A stretch of DNA of 64,000 nt from NCBI GenBank assembly GCA_035281845.1, contig DATEVL010000038.1:9785-73784 (forward strand), read 5' to 3'. Of this stretch, positions 1-11,875 are shown piece by piece. Source of the DNA: Anaerolineales bacterium (GTDB lineage Bacteria; Chloroflexota; Anaerolineae; Anaerolineales; E44-bin32). The first letter of the stretch is position 1. Each line of letters begins with the position of its first letter. The translations under genes were made by a program, and so were the position numbers. A model generated the notes under the pieces. The model searched no databases and had not been told where the DNA came from. It was given only the letters and a program-made list of their open reading frames with translations.

Positions 1-723
1 CAACCCGCCCGACTCGAGGCGCGCGCCCTCGGAGGCGCTCAGGTCAGCCTGGGCGGGCAGGAGGTCCGGCCCCTGAAGCCGCAGCTGCGTGAGATCCTGC
101 TGTACTTGATCGACCGCGGCTCGGCCTCGCGGGACGAATTAGGCGAAGTCTTTTGGCCCGCCTCCCCACCCGGGAAGCGCAACGCCAATATCCACATGGC
201 GATCCATTCCCTGCGCCGCTCCTTGGGCAGGGAGGTTGTGGAGTCGGACGGCGGGACGTATCAGATCACTCCGGCGTTGGAGGTGACCTACGATGTCGCC
301 AGCTTCCGCCGGGCGCGTGGAGTGGCCCTGTCGCTGCCTCGCGGCGACCCCCGTCGGTACTTCGCGCTCACCGAAGCGGTCAATTCCTACACCGGGGAGT
401 TCCTTCCCGAGGTTTCCAGCGAGTGGGCGACGGTTCGCCGCCGCGAACTCGAAATCCATTATCTGGAAGTCCTCTCCGGCTTCGGCGAAGAGGCCCTGAC
501 TCGCGACTTGCCGCAACGCGCCGTCGAACACATTCGCCGGGGCCTGGCGATCGACCCCTATCGCGACGACCTGAACGCCCAGTACATGGAGGCCTTGGGA
601 CGCCTGGGGCGACGAAGTGAGGTCGTCGCCCACTACCAACGCTACACCAACCTCCTGGATACGGAGCTCGGCCTGGATCCTCCTCGAGAGGTTCGCGAGC
701 TCTACGCCCGATTGATCCGCTAG
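1..723 (+). CDS. SARP/AfsR-family transcriptional activator with BTAD domain; 5' end lies outside the window
   Basis: Frame 1 is open from nt 1 (QPARLEARALGGAQVSLGGQEVRPLKPQLREILLYLIDRG...), so the ORF-track start at 106 (TTG) is internal. The C-terminal half has the BTAD-type layout (DPYRDDLNAQYMEALGRLGRRSEVVAHYQRYTNLLDTELGLDPPREVRELYARL). Stop TAG 721-723. Confidence 0.8.
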   Translation, partial: QPARLEARALGGAQVSLGGQEVRPLKPQLREILLYLIDRGSASRDELGEVFWPASPPGKRNANIHMAIHSLRRSLGREVVESDGGTYQITPALEVTYDVASFRRARGVALSLPRGDPRRYFALTEAVNSYTGEFLPEVSSEWATVRRRELEIHYLEVLSGFGEEALTRDLPQRAVEHIRRGLAIDPYRDDLNAQYMEALGRLGRRSEVVAHYQRYTNLLDTELGLDPPREVRELYARLIR

Positions 724-885
724 GCCGGAATTACCGATGAGGACCACGTGGCTGGAGGCACCTCCGGACCCGTCCCTTCCGAGGCAAGGTGGCCGCACGC
801 GTGAATCCAGGCTATTCTTCCTATTTAGTATAAAAGTATGAAGACCTATTCGAAATTCCCAATGTCGTCCTTCGGCTGCCTAAAG

Positions 886-918
886 GTTGAGAACCCGTTG
901 AGAACCCCTGTGTACTGT
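886..918 (+). promoter_or_regulatory. Exact tandem 11-mer GTTGAGAACCC x2 (886-896, 897-907) followed by -10-like TACTGT (913-918); candidate SARP-dependent promoter
   Basis: The repeats are read directly. The 11-nt periodicity and the ~8-nt gap from the last heptamer (TTGAGAA 898-904) to the -10-like hexamer match the published architecture of SARP-activated promoters, and the adjacent gene encodes a SARP. Function is not demonstrated. Confidence 0.35.
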
Positions 919-949
919 CAAGCCGATATTTGGAGAGGGAGGCGAGATC

Positions 950-979
950 ATGGCACGCGATCCAGTAGGTGGTCGGTAA
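950..979 (+). other. 9-codon mini-ORF (MARDPVGGR*) in the leader of the 1093 operon
   Basis: ATG 950 lies 7 nt after a strong SD-like GGAGAGGGAGG (932-942). Stop TAA 977-979. It sits about 40 nt upstream of a terminator hairpin. Confidence 0.3.
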
Positions 980-1017
980 GGCGTAATCTAAGCAGTTCAA
1001 TAGAAAGTCGGTTGCCA

Positions 1018-1052
1018 GGCAGCGAGGATTTCGCTTAGCTGCCTTTTGTTTT
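1018..1052 (+). terminator. Intrinsic terminator-like hairpin plus U-tract inside the leader (attenuator candidate)
   Basis: GGCAGC (1018-1023) pairs with GCTGCC (1038-1043), with additional inner pairs, and is followed by TTTTGTTTT (1044-1052). It lies 40 nt upstream of the SD AGGAGG (1082-1087) and ATG 1093. Confidence 0.55.
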
Positions 1053-1092
1053 ATACCGGCCTCATGCCGGACCAAGGACACAGGAGGAAACC

Positions 1093-1386
1093 ATGTCCAT
1101 GCAAGCGTTGAACCGTCTGGTGGCACGATCGATCGTCGACCCTTCCGTCCTTCAGGCTTTTGGCGCCGGGCAGATCGGCCAGGTCCTGGGCGAAATGGAC
1201 TTCTCGGCCGACGTGCGGCACACCCTGGTCGGCCTCGAGAGCGGCTCATGGGCCGAGTTCGCGATCCAGGCCTACCGGGTCGTGAAAGCGACTGAGAAGC
1301 CGGCTGTCCGCATCGAGCTGCCGTCCCCGCTCGAGGGTCTGATCGAAGCACAGCAGAAGCGCTCTGACGTCGGGCGAGTGGCGTGA
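1093..1386 (+). CDS. Hypothetical small protein (97 aa), helical N-terminal region
   Basis: Strong SD AGGAGG 6 nt upstream. Stop overlaps the next start (GTGA at 1383-1386), implying translational coupling. I recognise no family with confidence. Confidence 0.65.
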   Translation: MSMQALNRLVARSIVDPSVLQAFGAGQIGQVLGEMDFSADVRHTLVGLESGSWAEFAIQAYRVVKATEKPAVRIELPSPLEGLIEAQQKRSDVGRVA

Positions 1387-1880
1387 ACCCCGTCACTCGA
1401 GAAGAGCGCCGCTGGTTCCTGCACTGCCTGGCCCAGGGGCTCTTCGAGTACATGGGAGTGGCCGCGCCTCCGGTTCCGGTCGAGGGGCTGCTCCATCACC
1501 CGCCGGAAACGTACCGCGAGGACTTCGGCGTCGTCGATATGTACTCGACCCTGTGGGACGCCACCTTTGCCCGTCCGCCCAACGGCCGGGGAAGCGTCTT
1601 CGTCCGGATCGATCTCAGTCCGTCCGAACGCCGCTTCGCCCTGGCGCGGGAAGTGCTGAGCGCGCTGATTACCAGCCGCCACGGCCGGGCGATGGGCCTG
1701 GTGCAAATGCTCATGGCCGATCTCAAGGACTCCGCCGAGTATTTCGCCCGTTGCTTGCTTGTTCCCGAAGCCCTGCTGCAAGCTTTCCGCAGGCGGGGCG
1801 GGGACGTGGCGGATTTGGCGGAGCGCTTTGGCATCCCGTCCAGCGCAGCCGGATTGCGCTGGGAAGACTCGACCGCGTAG
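1383..1880 (+). CDS. ImmA/IrrE (M78, DUF955)-like protein with degenerate metal-binding motif
   Basis: RRFALAREVLSALITSRHG aligns by eye to the family motif (R)FtLAHELGHhllH, with both His replaced (H->R, H->S). The downstream AEYFARCLLVPEALL resembles the conserved E..AN.FAaeLLMP segment. Confidence 0.6.
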   Translation: MNPVTREERRWFLHCLAQGLFEYMGVAAPPVPVEGLLHHPPETYREDFGVVDMYSTLWDATFARPPNGRGSVFVRIDLSPSERRFALAREVLSALITSRHGRAMGLVQMLMADLKDSAEYFARCLLVPEALLQAFRRRGGDVADLAERFGIPSSAAGLRWEDSTA

Positions 1881-2074
1881 TTCACCCCCGACGCGGCGCG
1901 GGTCCGGACACGGGTGAGCGGCCTGGGCGAACGCCAGGTAACACCTTAGGTTGCGTCGGGCTCGGCCGCGCTTCCATCCAGCGCGCGCTGGCACTCAACT
2001 TGCACGGAGCACGGCTTGTTGGCGGCATGGGTATAATCCGCCGCCGGCCATGAGACGCGTGTGTCAGGTGCCCG

Positions 2075-3994
2075 GTGACATCCCCCGCCGGTAGTCCGCA
2101 ACCTCGGCCCCGGATCTCCTTTCGGGCCTGGGCTTTCCGACTGTTCGTTTTGCTGGCGGTCGTGCTGATTGCCCTCCTTGCACGGGCAGGGCTGGCCACC
2201 GGGGGGCCGCCTCCCACATCGCTCGACCCAACATTGCTCGCCCTGGCAACTCTGGTGGCCAATCCAGCAACACCCAGCGCCACCTCCGAGTCCTCCGGTG
2301 GGTCGATCCAGCCGCTTCCGACTCGCACAACCATTTCCGGGACCTTGGTGTACTCCGCGCGGGAGGCTGGCCGGTCCCACCTGTGGGCGATTTCCCAAGG
2401 CGACCCGGCGCCGACCCGTCTCACCACCGGGGATTTCAACGACCGCGAACCTGCCGCCAGCCCGGACGGTCGCTTCGTGGCCTTCGCCTCAGATCGCAAT
2501 GGGGGATGGGATCTGTATTTGCTTGACCTGGTCTCGGGCGAGGTCCGCCAATTGACTCAGACGACCTCCTTTGAAGGCCAGCCCACCTGGTCACCGGACG
2601 GCGTCTGGCTGGCGTATGAGTACTACGCCGGCGAGGACCTCGACATACGGATCCTCCCCGTCGATGGCAGCGAGAACCCGATCCAGCTCACCGACGCCCC
2701 TTCGATGGACTCGTCCCCCAGTTGGGATCCTGCCGGCAACCGGATTGCCTTCATTTCAGACCGGGACGGCCTCCCGGATGTCTATCTGGCCAACCTGCAA
2801 GACCCGAATGAGCGCTATCTGAACCTGACTCACTCGGCCTTGATCTCGGAAGCCGATCCCGCCTTTGCACCCGACGGCAAATCCCTCGCCTACTCCGGCC
2901 GAGGCAATGGTTTCGACTTCGTCTACGTAACGTCCCTGGAAAGCCAGAGTGGAGAAGCGAAGGAGATCGGCCTCGGACGCAACCCGGAGTGGTCGCCGGG
3001 CAGCGAGGCTTTGGGGGCGATACTCCCCTCCGCGCAGACCAGCCATTTCCTGGTTTACCCCGTCGTTTCGGCCGACCTCACCAGCGTCGGTTATCCATCG
3101 ATCCGAGGCATCGAGAGCCTGGCGTGGTCGGCGGGGGGCCTCCCGCCGGAAGTAACCGGGTGGTCGCCCGAAGTCGTCGAGGCCCACGCAGGTGTCGTCT
3201 CGATCAGCGCACCCACGGGAGCGCGGGTCGCCCTGACTCGGCTTGCGGGCGTGGACGCTCCCGCCCCGATGCTCTCGGATCTCGTTGACGATGCGTTCTC
3301 GGAGTTGCGCACCCGCGCAGCTCACGAAATTGGATGGGACGTCCTGGGAAGACTGGAGAATGCGTTCGTTGGAATCAACGCGCCGATGCCGCCTGGATTT
3401 TCCTACAACGATTGGCTGTACACCGGTCGGGCCTTTGCCCTAGACCCGGCCGCCCTGACTTCGGGACTCATCGAGGTCGTCCGGGAGGATTACGGCGCGG
3501 AGACGTACTGGCGGCTCTACCTGCGGGTGATCCCGCAAGACGGATCGCTGGGGGAGCCGATTCGTGTCCGACCATGGGATTTCAGCACTCGTTACACTGG
3601 CGACCCGACCACCTACGATCGAGGCGGCTCCCTGAAGGAGACTTTGCCGGATGGTTACTACGTGGACTTGACGAAGCTAGCCGCCGACTACGGATTCGAA
3701 CGTGTGCCGGCGATGTCCAACTGGCGGACGTACTTTCAGGCTGCCCGCTACAGCGAGTTCGCCCGCACCGACGGGCTGACATGGCTGAGCGCGATGCTGC
3801 AGATCTACCCACCGGAGGCGATCGTCACACCGACTCCGTATCGCACACCCACGGCGACGCCCACTCGCACGCTGGTGCCCACGCCGACTCCCTGGTACTG
3901 GCGCTGGATCCTCACCGCAACCGCGCTTGCGAAACCGAGCTCAACTTCGACTTCCACTTCACCTTCGATTTCGACCTTGACTCCGTCACCATGA
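2075..3994 (+). CDS. Membrane-anchored TolB-like PD40 beta-propeller protein with uncharacterised C-terminal domain and Thr/Pro-rich tail
   Basis: N-terminal hydrophobic anchor (FRLFVLLAVVLIALLA). Repeated PD40-type motifs (PAASPDGRFVAFASDRNGGWDLYLLDL, PTWSPDGVWLAYEY, PSWDPAGNRIAFISDRDG, PAFAPDGKSLAY). GTG start. Stop overlaps the next ATG (ATGA). Confidence 0.8.
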   Translation: MTSPAGSPQPRPRISFRAWAFRLFVLLAVVLIALLARAGLATGGPPPTSLDPTLLALATLVANPATPSATSESSGGSIQPLPTRTTISGTLVYSAREAGRSHLWAISQGDPAPTRLTTGDFNDREPAASPDGRFVAFASDRNGGWDLYLLDLVSGEVRQLTQTTSFEGQPTWSPDGVWLAYEYYAGEDLDIRILPVDGSENPIQLTDAPSMDSSPSWDPAGNRIAFISDRDGLPDVYLANLQDPNERYLNLTHSALISEADPAFAPDGKSLAYSGRGNGFDFVYVTSLESQSGEAKEIGLGRNPEWSPGSEALGAILPSAQTSHFLVYPVVSADLTSVGYPSIRGIESLAWSAGGLPPEVTGWSPEVVEAHAGVVSISAPTGARVALTRLAGVDAPAPMLSDLVDDAFSELRTRAAHEIGWDVLGRLENAFVGINAPMPPGFSYNDWLYTGRAFALDPAALTSGLIEVVREDYGAETYWRLYLRVIPQDGSLGEPIRVRPWDFSTRYTGDPTTYDRGGSLKETLPDGYYVDLTKLAADYGFERVPAMSNWRTYFQAARYSEFARTDGLTWLSAMLQIYPPEAIVTPTPYRTPTATPTRTLVPTPTPWYWRWILTATALAKPSSTSTSTSPSISTLTPSP

Positions 3995-11753: not shown

Positions 11754-11875
11754 TCACAGGGGAGACGGCCTGTCTCATCTCGGCGCGACTCAACCGGCTC
11801 TCGACCCTTTCGGAGACACGCCCGGGGCCCCGTCCGCTGCTCATCGATGACATCAAGCACGGGAGGCGAGTCGGG

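Follow-up and report, generated by a model that had tools for sequence, protein, structure and literature searches.

What is controlled, and how, in the AT-rich gap between a SARP-type regulator gene and a small operon in a bacterium that is no actinomycete? To our knowledge, SARP-type activation has been studied almost solely in actinomycetes, as a switch for antibiotic synthesis, and the gap in question (724-1092) belongs to an Anaerolineales bacterium (Chloroflexota). It lies in a stretch of 64,000 nt, hereafter the window, from contig DATEVL010000038.1 of assembly GCA_035281845.1, between the 3' end of the regulator gene (1-723, plus strand) and an operon for a protein of 97 amino acids (aa) and an M78-like protein. 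A first-pass annotation, made from the letters alone, had read into this gap a promoter driven by the SARP protein, followed by a leader-peptide or terminator attenuator that gates the transcript. Comparison of the locus with its relatives leads us to conclude that the leader is a real and undescribed two-layer control region, the layers themselves being of known kinds, namely a SARP promoter and a ribosome-coupled terminator. The complete scheme, in which these two layers together would control the operon for the 97-aa and M78-like proteins, is on balance mildly probable.

The locus and its relatives

The comparison covered 67 species-level genome loci, obtained by scanning species-representative genomes, and 22 metagenome loci from JGI. 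The same elements, namely a repeat box, a -10 hexamer, a Shine–Dalgarno (SD) sequence, a very small open reading frame (mini-ORF) and a hairpin, occur in the same order upstream of the 97-aa gene orthologues in this set and, because they recur in that order at ~90 related loci, they are not there by chance. The gene order is syntenic across the taxonomic order as well (140-aa gene, regulator, intergenic region, 97-aa gene, M78-like gene and PD40 protein), and the intergenic region measures roughly 330-400 nt in most loci. Alignment of the orthologous loci recovers the 11-mer box in 73 of them and an SD-led mini-ORF in nearly all.

In the window itself, region 724-1092 has 53% GC against 65.6% overall, and the sole 150-nt segments below 50% GC in the 64 kb fall within 771-979, which bears out the first-pass description of it as AT-richer. 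Its remark that the leader belongs to no known riboswitch class has held, since a scan of 1-3000 against Rfam 15 (E<=10) gave no relevant match, the sole one being a chance fragment of a long non-coding RNA at 2040-2076; ARAGORN found neither tRNA nor tmRNA. A scanner for consensus promoters and terminators called neither over 600-2200, and in particular no sigma-70 consensus promoter, a silence that is expected for a promoter lacking a -35 element and a hairpin with an internal loop.

A SARP module and its candidate promoter

The regulator gene is cut by the edge of the window, and the architecture of its 1052-aa product was read from identical contigs. An AAA/NOD ATPase (nucleotide-binding oligomerization domain, residues 27-145) and TPRs (~384-640) are followed by a C-terminal module, encoded within 1-723, that consists of a winged-helix DNA-binding domain and a BTAD (910-1050, Pfam E = 1.6e-21). 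The protein covers positions 29-267 of the NCBIfam AfsR model, and its last 240 aa span the whole SARP domain of AfsR (PDB 8hvr residues 49-283, E = 1.5e-12), with an OmpR-type DNA-binding domain and then a BTA domain, as in the SARP family. Judged by these Pfam, NCBIfam and 8hvr alignments, the regulator carries a genuine SARP DNA-binding module. The first-pass label of an adjacent SARP gene thus stands for the module and falls for the protein, which is not a classical SARP since it is an ATPase/TPR protein with the module at its C-terminus. AfsR of Streptomyces coelicolor likewise joins a SARP module, a NOD and TPRs, but in the order canonical for large SARPs (N-terminal SARP, then NOD and TPR), whereas the order here is reversed (ATPase, TPR, SARP). 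A literature search found no paper linking SARP or BTAD regulators with Chloroflexi.

Downstream of this gene, the 11-mer GTTGAGAACCC is repeated in exact tandem on the plus strand (886-896 and 897-907), as first noticed by eye and confirmed by an independent repeat search; by an arithmetic estimate, ~0.015 exact tandem 11-mers would be expected by chance in 64 kb. When upstream regions were aligned at the best-matching pair of GTTGAGA-like words spaced by 11 nt, the repeat box emerged in 73 loci, with the consensus GTT[G/A/T]AGAA[T/C]CC for the upstream repeat and GTTGAGAGnnn for the downstream one, the latter with 8 conserved bp and then 3 free ones. The sequence TAnnnT begins exactly 5 nt past the 22-bp box in 70 of the 73 loci, which is 8 bp past the conserved 8-mer of the second repeat; its inner positions are essentially random, and it is preceded by G in 57 of the 70. 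Because T, A and T are invariant at a fixed distance from the box, TAnnnT can be taken as the -10 hexamer. In the window it reads TACTGT (913-918, plus strand), present as originally described, 9 nt past the heptamer GTTGAGA and 8 nt past the conserved 8-mer GTTGAGAA. The position of this hexamer predicts a transcription start at about 925 (923-927), and the box would then span ~-39 to -18, with the upstream repeat (~-39 to -29) as the putative site of a first SARP protomer and the downstream repeat (~-28 to -18) as that of a second, in place of a -35 element.

This is the arrangement of the afs box, in which two 11-bp repeats lie at -40 to -19, protein contacts are limited to the first 8 bp, and the 3' repeat is 8 bp from the -10 element, the last being the rule for SARP promoters (PMC10936776). 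The likeness to the afsS promoter of S. coelicolor, the AfsR target, is close: there too the -35 element gives way to the repeats, conservation is confined to the first 8 bp of each, a weak -10 element of the TAnnnT type stands 8 bp from the 3' repeat, and the target is an adjacent small gene. SARP promoters are recognized by direct repeats, with a period of 11 bp or 22 bp, over or in place of the -35; repeats of the 11-bp kind are found here at 886-907 and in the 73 loci, and the 8-bp distance to the -10 in 70 of them. The differences are that the repeats have another sequence (GTTGAGAA), that the host belongs to the Chloroflexota and not the Actinomycetota, and that the transcript carries a translated micro-ORF and a terminator ahead of the target genes. 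Since the box, its offset and its geometry match the published SARP rule, the promoter proposed in the first-pass annotation passes a strong comparative test: the box adjoins the regulator gene in 73 loci, with TAnnnT at one offset in 70 of them. It is thus highly probable that the SARP module of this NLR-like regulator activates a promoter without a -35 element through the two repeats. If so, the afs-box geometry would have been kept base for base in Chloroflexota, along with a regulator of reversed order and a conserved chromosomal operon that is not biosynthetic, which would extend the reach of the SARP mechanism and provide a clean candidate binding site for testing.

Other promoter candidates fared poorly. 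Several other clades have TTGAnn 16-18 nt upstream of a TAGAAT-like sequence within the first repeat, but such a promoter was rejected as the main one since TAnnnT past the box is near-universal and at a fixed offset. A sigma-54 promoter in GGTTGCCAGGCAGC was discarded for wrong spacing. A relaxed search of the window gave a sole other match to the box, at 11789-11805 on the minus strand, with ATGAGA where TAnnnT is due, and this match was put down to chance.

Additional elements surround the box in some clades. In the clade of the window, the motif ATTTAGTATAAAA (824-836, plus strand) is the local variant, identified by alignment, of TTTACATAAG ~62 nt upstream of the box, whose position, -62/-63 counted from the first repeat, is kept in 11 relatives (L007, L008, L075, L076, L078, L080, L082, L084, L088, L089 and L091). 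Other clades have the palindrome GAGTACTAGTAC ~25-36 nt upstream of the box, and both the motif and the palindrome may be sites for a second factor. In L012, L019, L043, L055 and their relatives, a short inverted repeat spans the end of the -10 and the predicted start, reaching ~+12; its arms co-change between clades (GATTTC..GAAATC, AGTTTC..GAAACT, GTAATCC TGAG GGATTAC and GGTACTT..AAGTACC), while the loop is kept as ACCAGAGTGG or ATGAGGGA. This inverted repeat, of which the window's clade gives no evident sign, could serve as an operator or as a hairpin at the 5' end of the RNA. Immediately before the first repeat (876-882), five of six near-identical contigs show a cluster of polymorphisms (C876A, T877A, G878T and A882C) that creates GGAATCC. 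Finally, four loci (L067:1347, L068:1351, L070:1375 and L071:1384) have a second repeat box (GTTGAGAGCGCGTTGAGA) just upstream of the regulator gene, which suggests autoregulation in that clade, and the same four have an extra BTAD-like paralogue farther upstream.

A very small ORF conserved as a peptide

The predicted transcript begins with a strong SD, GGAGAGGGAGG (932-942, plus strand), and an ORF of nine codons with its ATG at 950 and TAA at 977-979 (950-979, plus strand), which encodes MARDPVGGR; both were correctly read in the first pass. An SD precedes the mini-ORF in nearly all loci, and an SD-led ORF is found between promoter and hairpin in nearly all. The 78 mini-ORFs encode 70 distinct peptides of 6-19 aa, in which glycine makes up 30% of residues, is concentrated towards the C-terminus, and forms runs of up to five near the end.

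In the window's clade (15 sequences) the peptide is M-[A/P]-x-D-P-[V/I/L]-G-G-[R/G], and codons 4-9 have 2, 1 and 5 variable sites at codon positions 1, 2 and 3, a three-base periodicity. Other clades have R-(C/S)-P-(R/K)-D-G-G followed by a glycine-rich tail, for example MVSSRCPRDGGLVGG, MGRSPRDGGLSTG and MARCPMVGGGGT. The arginine of P-R-D is variously AGA, CGT or CGG, which argues for selection on the amino acid. Together with the clade motif, the codon-position pattern and the 70 related peptides, this shows the mini-ORF to be conserved at the peptide level, and leaves open that the peptide itself, not only its translation, may be the point. In one locus (L065:4590-4745) there are two tandem copies (MKSPRDQGVGSM) with separate SDs and only synonymous differences; the leader there is unusually long (~600 nt) and lacks the usual hairpin motif.

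The stop codons are also peculiar. Of the 78 mini-ORFs, 47 stop at TAG, 31 at TAA and not one at TGA, although TGA closes ~50% of the long ORFs of these loci and 62% of those in the window. RF1 reads just these two stops, TAG and TAA. The predicted micropeptides have x-D-P-V-G-G-R in the clade of the window and R-C-P-R-D-G-G in others, with glycine-rich tails and only stops that RF1 can read. The end of the ORF (963-977, CAGTAGGTGGTCGGT) also resembles the sequence at 998-1012 (CAATAGAAAGTCGGT), which lies just before segment 2 described below, as an imperfect 15-nt direct repeat (73% identical).

The hairpin and its alternative partners

Downstream of the mini-ORF stands a terminator-type hairpin (1018-1043, plus strand), in which GGCAGC (1018-1023) pairs with GCTGCC (1038-1043) and which is followed by the T-run TTTTGTTTT (1044-1052, plus strand), all as first described. 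Its 5' arm is GGCAGC(GA) and its 3' arm (TCGC TTA) GCTGCC, on either side of the loop, and its outer stem is 98.3% paired. In loci with the 5' arm GGCAGCGAG the hairpin folds at -15 to -25 kcal/mol in all. This arm is almost invariant, while clades vary in their 3' arm and inner stem; in L087-L091 the stem GGCAG/CTGCC has become AGCAG/CTGCT, both sides having changed to give A:U in place of the outer G:C. In most clades the hairpin runs into a T-rich tract. The 5' arm is part of an invariant 21-nt block, AAGTCGGTTGCCAGGCAGCGA (1005-1025, plus strand), which also holds a segment 2 (CGGTTGCC, 1009-1016); 19 of its 21 positions do not vary among the 15 sequences of the window's clade, the remaining two being >90% conserved, and the core CGGTTGCC and GCAGCGAG are identical in 24 of 24 sequences when sister clades are included, despite diverging flanks. 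A second small hairpin, CCGGC CTCAT GCCGG (1056-1070, plus strand), lies between the T-run and the next SD, and its stem covaries within the clade (CCGGC/GCCGG, CCCGG/CCGGG and CCCTGG/CCAGGG).

Is the main hairpin the end of a transcription unit? Between it and the SD of the 97-aa gene, TAnnnT is absent in 60 of 77 loci, so that the 97-aa gene must be read through the hairpin, which is thus an attenuator or a partial terminator rather than an operon boundary. The competing explanation, that it is the terminator or insulator of the regulator gene, that the 97-aa operon has its own promoter and that the mini-ORF is incidental, takes from the layout that the hairpin is the first terminator-like structure past the regulator stop codon, at which regulator transcripts would end, and is scarcely credible given that those 60 of 77 loci stand against 70 of 73 with a fixed TAnnnT past the box, that the mini-ORF, its SD and its peptide are conserved across the order, and that the start of the ORF can be complementary to a terminator arm.

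That complementarity is found in most clades; in the RCP class (~30 loci), ORF codons 2-5 (GCUCGCUGCC) are the exact complement of the terminator 5' arm. The match is 9 bp long and gives a duplex of -16 to -22 kcal/mol (z = -2.5 to -5.7 against shuffled leaders), and the best partner of the 5' arm always falls within nt +1 to +19 of the ORF. In an alignment of 20 sequences the paired cells amount to 78.8%, compared with 25-52% after sliding of the partner. A single clean compensation, G:C to A:U, occurs in L039, and L064 carries a three-way change that involves both terminator arms and the ORF. In these loci the 3' arm (GCCUCCUG) is moreover complementary to the SD of the mini-ORF. Folding predicts that the free leader adopts the long-range antiterminator, and that masking of the initiation footprint restores the terminator.

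The window's clade has a different set of pairing potentials. RNAalifold pairs the last ORF codons, GGYGGYCG (968-975), with CGGUUGCC (1009-1016) in a helix that abuts the terminator. In the window the first of these segments is GGTGGTCG (968-975, plus strand), the Gly-Gly-Arg codons, and the proposed helix, P1, is 89.6% paired with one-sided changes. Segment 2 can alternatively pair with the 5' arm (GUUGC with GCAGC, across a loop of 3-4 nt), and this small hairpin, GUUGC(CAG)GCAGC, is always possible (100% paired). Across clades, the glycine-rich end of the ORF tends to pair with the spacer, with the stop codon in or near the loop; the ORF 3' ends and spacers are too heterogeneous for a cross-clade covariation test of this hairpin.

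A ribosome-dependent switch?

These elements can be assembled into a mechanism, in which we infer the binding of the protein, the start and the termination of transcription, and both the direction and the signal of the switch. Two SARP modules of the NLR-like ATPase-TPR regulator would bind side by side on the repeats at 886-907 and recruit RNA polymerase to the -10 hexamer TACTGT, so that transcription would start near 925 with a strong ribosome-binding site and the translated nine-codon ORF (950-979). Polymerase would then reach the hairpin and U-tract (1018-1052), where most transcripts would end as an RNA of ~128 nt, and the operon would be reached only by read-through because there is no promoter past the hairpin. 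The choice between the two outcomes would be made by ribosome occupancy of the mini-ORF, which would select the RNA pairing. For most of the family, the two terminator arms would find their partners in ORF codons 2-5 and the SD, and an unoccupied leader would thus be read through whereas a ribosome-bound leader would be terminated. In the window's clade, four segments as in trp leaders would pair 1:2 (ORF end with CGGUUGCC), 2:3 (with the 5' arm) and 3:4 (5' arm with 3' arm). A regulated, ribosome-dependent terminator is a proposition that could as well be right as wrong.

The closest precedent is the mccA-mccB leader, in which upstream sequences attenuate a terminator and ribosome binding to a 7-codon ORF restores termination (PMC4231749). 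The two share their layout, with a tiny ORF behind an SD (of 7 codons in mcc and 6-19 here), an intrinsic terminator and downstream genes, and in both cases sequences of the upstream ORF and its ribosome-binding site oppose the terminator; termination restored by the ribosome has been shown in mcc and is predicted here by start-masked folding of the RCP-class loci. Unlike mcc, the present operon has no MccB-like enzyme, C-terminal Asn, immunity or export genes, and the clade of the window lacks the pairing between ORF start and terminator arm.

The likeness to the trp, his, leu and pheA attenuators is more partial. As in these, a short translated leader precedes a terminator, four segments are able to pair 1:2, 2:3 and 3:4, and there is a run of codons for a single amino acid near the end of the leader, here up to five Gly. 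Two of the four marks of a classical amino-acid attenuator are present, an SD-led short ORF upstream of the first structural gene and, at sequence level, an intrinsic terminator ahead of that gene with no later promoter. As to the third, a mutually exclusive antiterminator, there is some compensation in the RCP loci, whereas the window's clade offers only invariant pairing potentials. The fourth, a fit between the regulatory codons and the pathway, fails: the glycine-rich tail (30% glycine) precedes genes for a protein without known family and a pseudo-M78 protein, an operon without evident link to glycine metabolism. The present leader further departs from the classical ones in that its 2:3 alternative is only 5 bp long, its peptide is conserved beyond the codon run, and its stop codon is never TGA.

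Several results weigh against the scheme. The first-pass reading of a leader-peptide or terminator attenuator holds in broad outline, the SD, the mini-ORF and the hairpin all being conserved. At the ORF start of the window's own clade, no complement to the 5' arm is present (z >= 0.6). Covariation of the RCP antiterminator in the 20-sequence alignment is overall not above that of shuffles, because there is little variation, and P1, the 2:3 hairpin and the terminator stem are so nearly invariant in the window's clade (89.6%, 100% and 98.3% paired, respectively) that they yield no covariation evidence. The 2:3 hairpin, at just 5 bp, is far weaker than the terminator, and two loci (L017 and L086) retain GGTTGCC though their ORF end is not complementary to it. 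Two clades carry GATTTCGCGT in place of the T-rich tract, which makes a poor U-tract, and the whole leader folds no better than shuffled sequence (z = -0.17). The function of the operon offers no hint of the signal to which a glycine-rich leader might respond. Lastly, the organism is known solely from metagenome-assembled genomes.

Should the scheme nonetheless be right, the leader would be unusual in stacking activator control on a ribosome-coupled terminator with a peptide-conserved mini-ORF and no TGA stop, and if the peptide or its termination step were the sensor this would be a new type of input for attenuation. What sets the region apart is the phylum, the reversed architecture of the regulator, the peptide-level conservation of a very small ORF and the avoidance of TGA. 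The ~90 aligned loci also define a motif that can be used for the annotation of these genomes, and they open the pair of 97-aa and pseudo-M78 proteins to experiment.

Is the peptide the product?

The conservation of the peptide invites a second explanation, which is possible if rather doubtful: that the mini-ORF is a micropeptide gene and that the promoter mainly yields an abundant short mRNA for the 9-aa peptide. The hairpin would then fix how much mRNA there is for the peptide relative to the genes downstream, as it does for mccA, and the leader would read no environmental signal; acting in trans, the peptide would either bind the regulator TPRs as a ligand or serve the 97-aa and pseudo-M78 proteins as partner or substrate. 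In this the system would resemble AfsR, which drives the small gene afsS. The peptide-level selection described above, including the use of alternative arginine codon families, is what this explanation predicts, as are the tandem copies with their own SDs in L065, which are usual for peptide genes and unusual for leader peptides. It has precedents in the mcc operons, where the layout of tiny ORF plus terminator serves a product peptide, and in the canonical AfsR target, which is an adjacent small gene, and it gains from the lack of a convincing antiterminator in the window's clade. It suffers from the absence of any modifying enzyme, exporter or signal sequence and from the missing catalytic motif of the M78-like protein. 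The peptide moreover varies widely in length (6-19 aa) and in sequence, down to MPHVDD, the RCP codons are equally explained by RNA pairing, and the invariant 21-nt block is left without explanation.

In its boldest form, this idea holds that the main output of the regulator is the family of 6-19-aa micropeptides, made from an mccA-like short transcript under ribosome control and acting either as nascent chains or as free peptides, a notion we put forward tentatively and regard as less than likely. As a nascent chain, the peptide would set read-through by the dwell time of the ribosome at its glycine and stop codons, and would be a sensor of glycyl-tRNA or of translation termination. As a free peptide, it would work with the 97-aa and pseudo-M78 proteins or feed back on the TPRs of the regulator. 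In both cases the circuit would centre on a peptide, and would be undescribed and conserved throughout an order of the Chloroflexota. Two known kinds of peptide system were considered and set aside. Quorum sensing of the RRNPP type was rejected for want of a signal peptide. A microcin C-type ribosomally synthesized and post-translationally modified peptide was rejected for want of MccB: of the two operon proteins, Pfam and NCBIfam scans matched the 165-aa one to Peptidase_M78 alone and the 97-aa one to no family, there is no MccB-type adenylating enzyme among the neighbouring genes listed for L001-L006, and only one of the 70 peptides (that of L028) ends in Asn as a microcin C precursor should, that of the window ending in Arg.

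A third explanation, that an RNA-binding protein controls the hairpin, is improbable. Here the invariant block AAGUCGGUUGCCAGGCAGCGA would be the binding site, binding would promote or prevent termination, and the binder could be a product of the operon, which would amount to feedback. The attraction of the idea is that the 19-21-nt block and the 5' arm GGCAGCGAG are invariant in sequence, whereas a terminator requires pairing alone, that the block is conserved even in the two loci whose ORF end cannot pair with it (L017 and L086), and that the 97-aa protein, a member of no known family, is always co-located. However, Pfam, NCBIfam, PADLOC and PHROGs detect no RNA-binding domain in the neighbouring proteins, the model of the 97-aa protein has no known fold match, overlapping alternative pairings would freeze the sequence equally, and the conserved, translated ORF would go unexplained. 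Of these readings, the SARP promoter followed by a ribosome-coupled terminator remains the one that we prefer.

The downstream operon

As originally annotated, the leader is followed by the SD AGGAGG (1082-1087, plus strand), read directly in the sequence, and by the ATG at 1093 of the 97-aa gene (1093-1386, plus strand). This conserved protein has 111 homologues, and all those with a source organism name are from Anaerolineales; the gene is also found on near-identical contigs of up to 125 kb. It has no match in Pfam, NCBIfam, PADLOC or PHROGs, and its structural model is a helical bundle (predicted local distance difference test, pLDDT, 82.6) without a fold match in the PDB. The second gene (1383-1880, plus strand) overlaps the first by GTGA and encodes the 165-aa M78/ImmA-IrrE-like protein (Pfam Peptidase_M78, E = 9.7e-8). 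The HExxH zinc-binding motif of M78 metalloproteases is replaced by RExxS, with RExx[S/C/T/R] in 70 of the 70 orthologues in which the motif was located, and the surroundings of the motif (ARExLSALITS[R/K]HGR) are strongly conserved, so that by its sequence the protein looks like a conserved pseudo-protease.

The pair recalls the modules of an ImmA/IrrE (M78) protein and a repressor, in which a small upstream gene likewise overlaps the gene of the M78 family. It differs from them in having RExxS for HExxH in all orthologues with the motif located, and in that the 97-aa partner has no helix-turn-helix domain detectable with Pfam or NCBIfam. Downstream of the operon, nearly all loci have a PD40/Tricorn-like beta-propeller protein (639 aa, 2075-3994) and an M23 peptidase, both of which may belong to the same functional unit. 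M23 enzymes commonly cleave Gly-Gly bonds, a property that deserves mention beside a glycine-tailed peptide.

Assembly breaks at the leader

A last observation concerns the assemblies themselves. Contig ends are strongly enriched in this region: 17 of the 67 genome contigs terminate within 500 nt upstream of the ATG of the 97-aa gene (L016, L020, L027, L030, L031, L035-L037, L041, L044, L045, L056, L059, L063, L066, L069 and L073), and so do L081, L086, L087, L092 and L093, while the rate of breaks declines with distance (10 of 50 within the following 1 kb, then 8 of 40 over a further 3.5 kb). Several contigs break right at the invariant hairpin motif, L044 and L045 beginning with ACCAGGCAGCGAGG and L035 with CAGCGAGG. 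A multi-copy motif was rejected as the cause, since neither the window nor the 5 kb around the loci holds further copies of the 5' arm motif, the only extra matches being the complement in the mini-ORF and matches within coding sequences. Polymorphism within one species is 4-6 times higher in the intergenic region than in its flanks, and it is plausible that the breaks come from strain heterogeneity or from a loss of coverage related to the hairpin.

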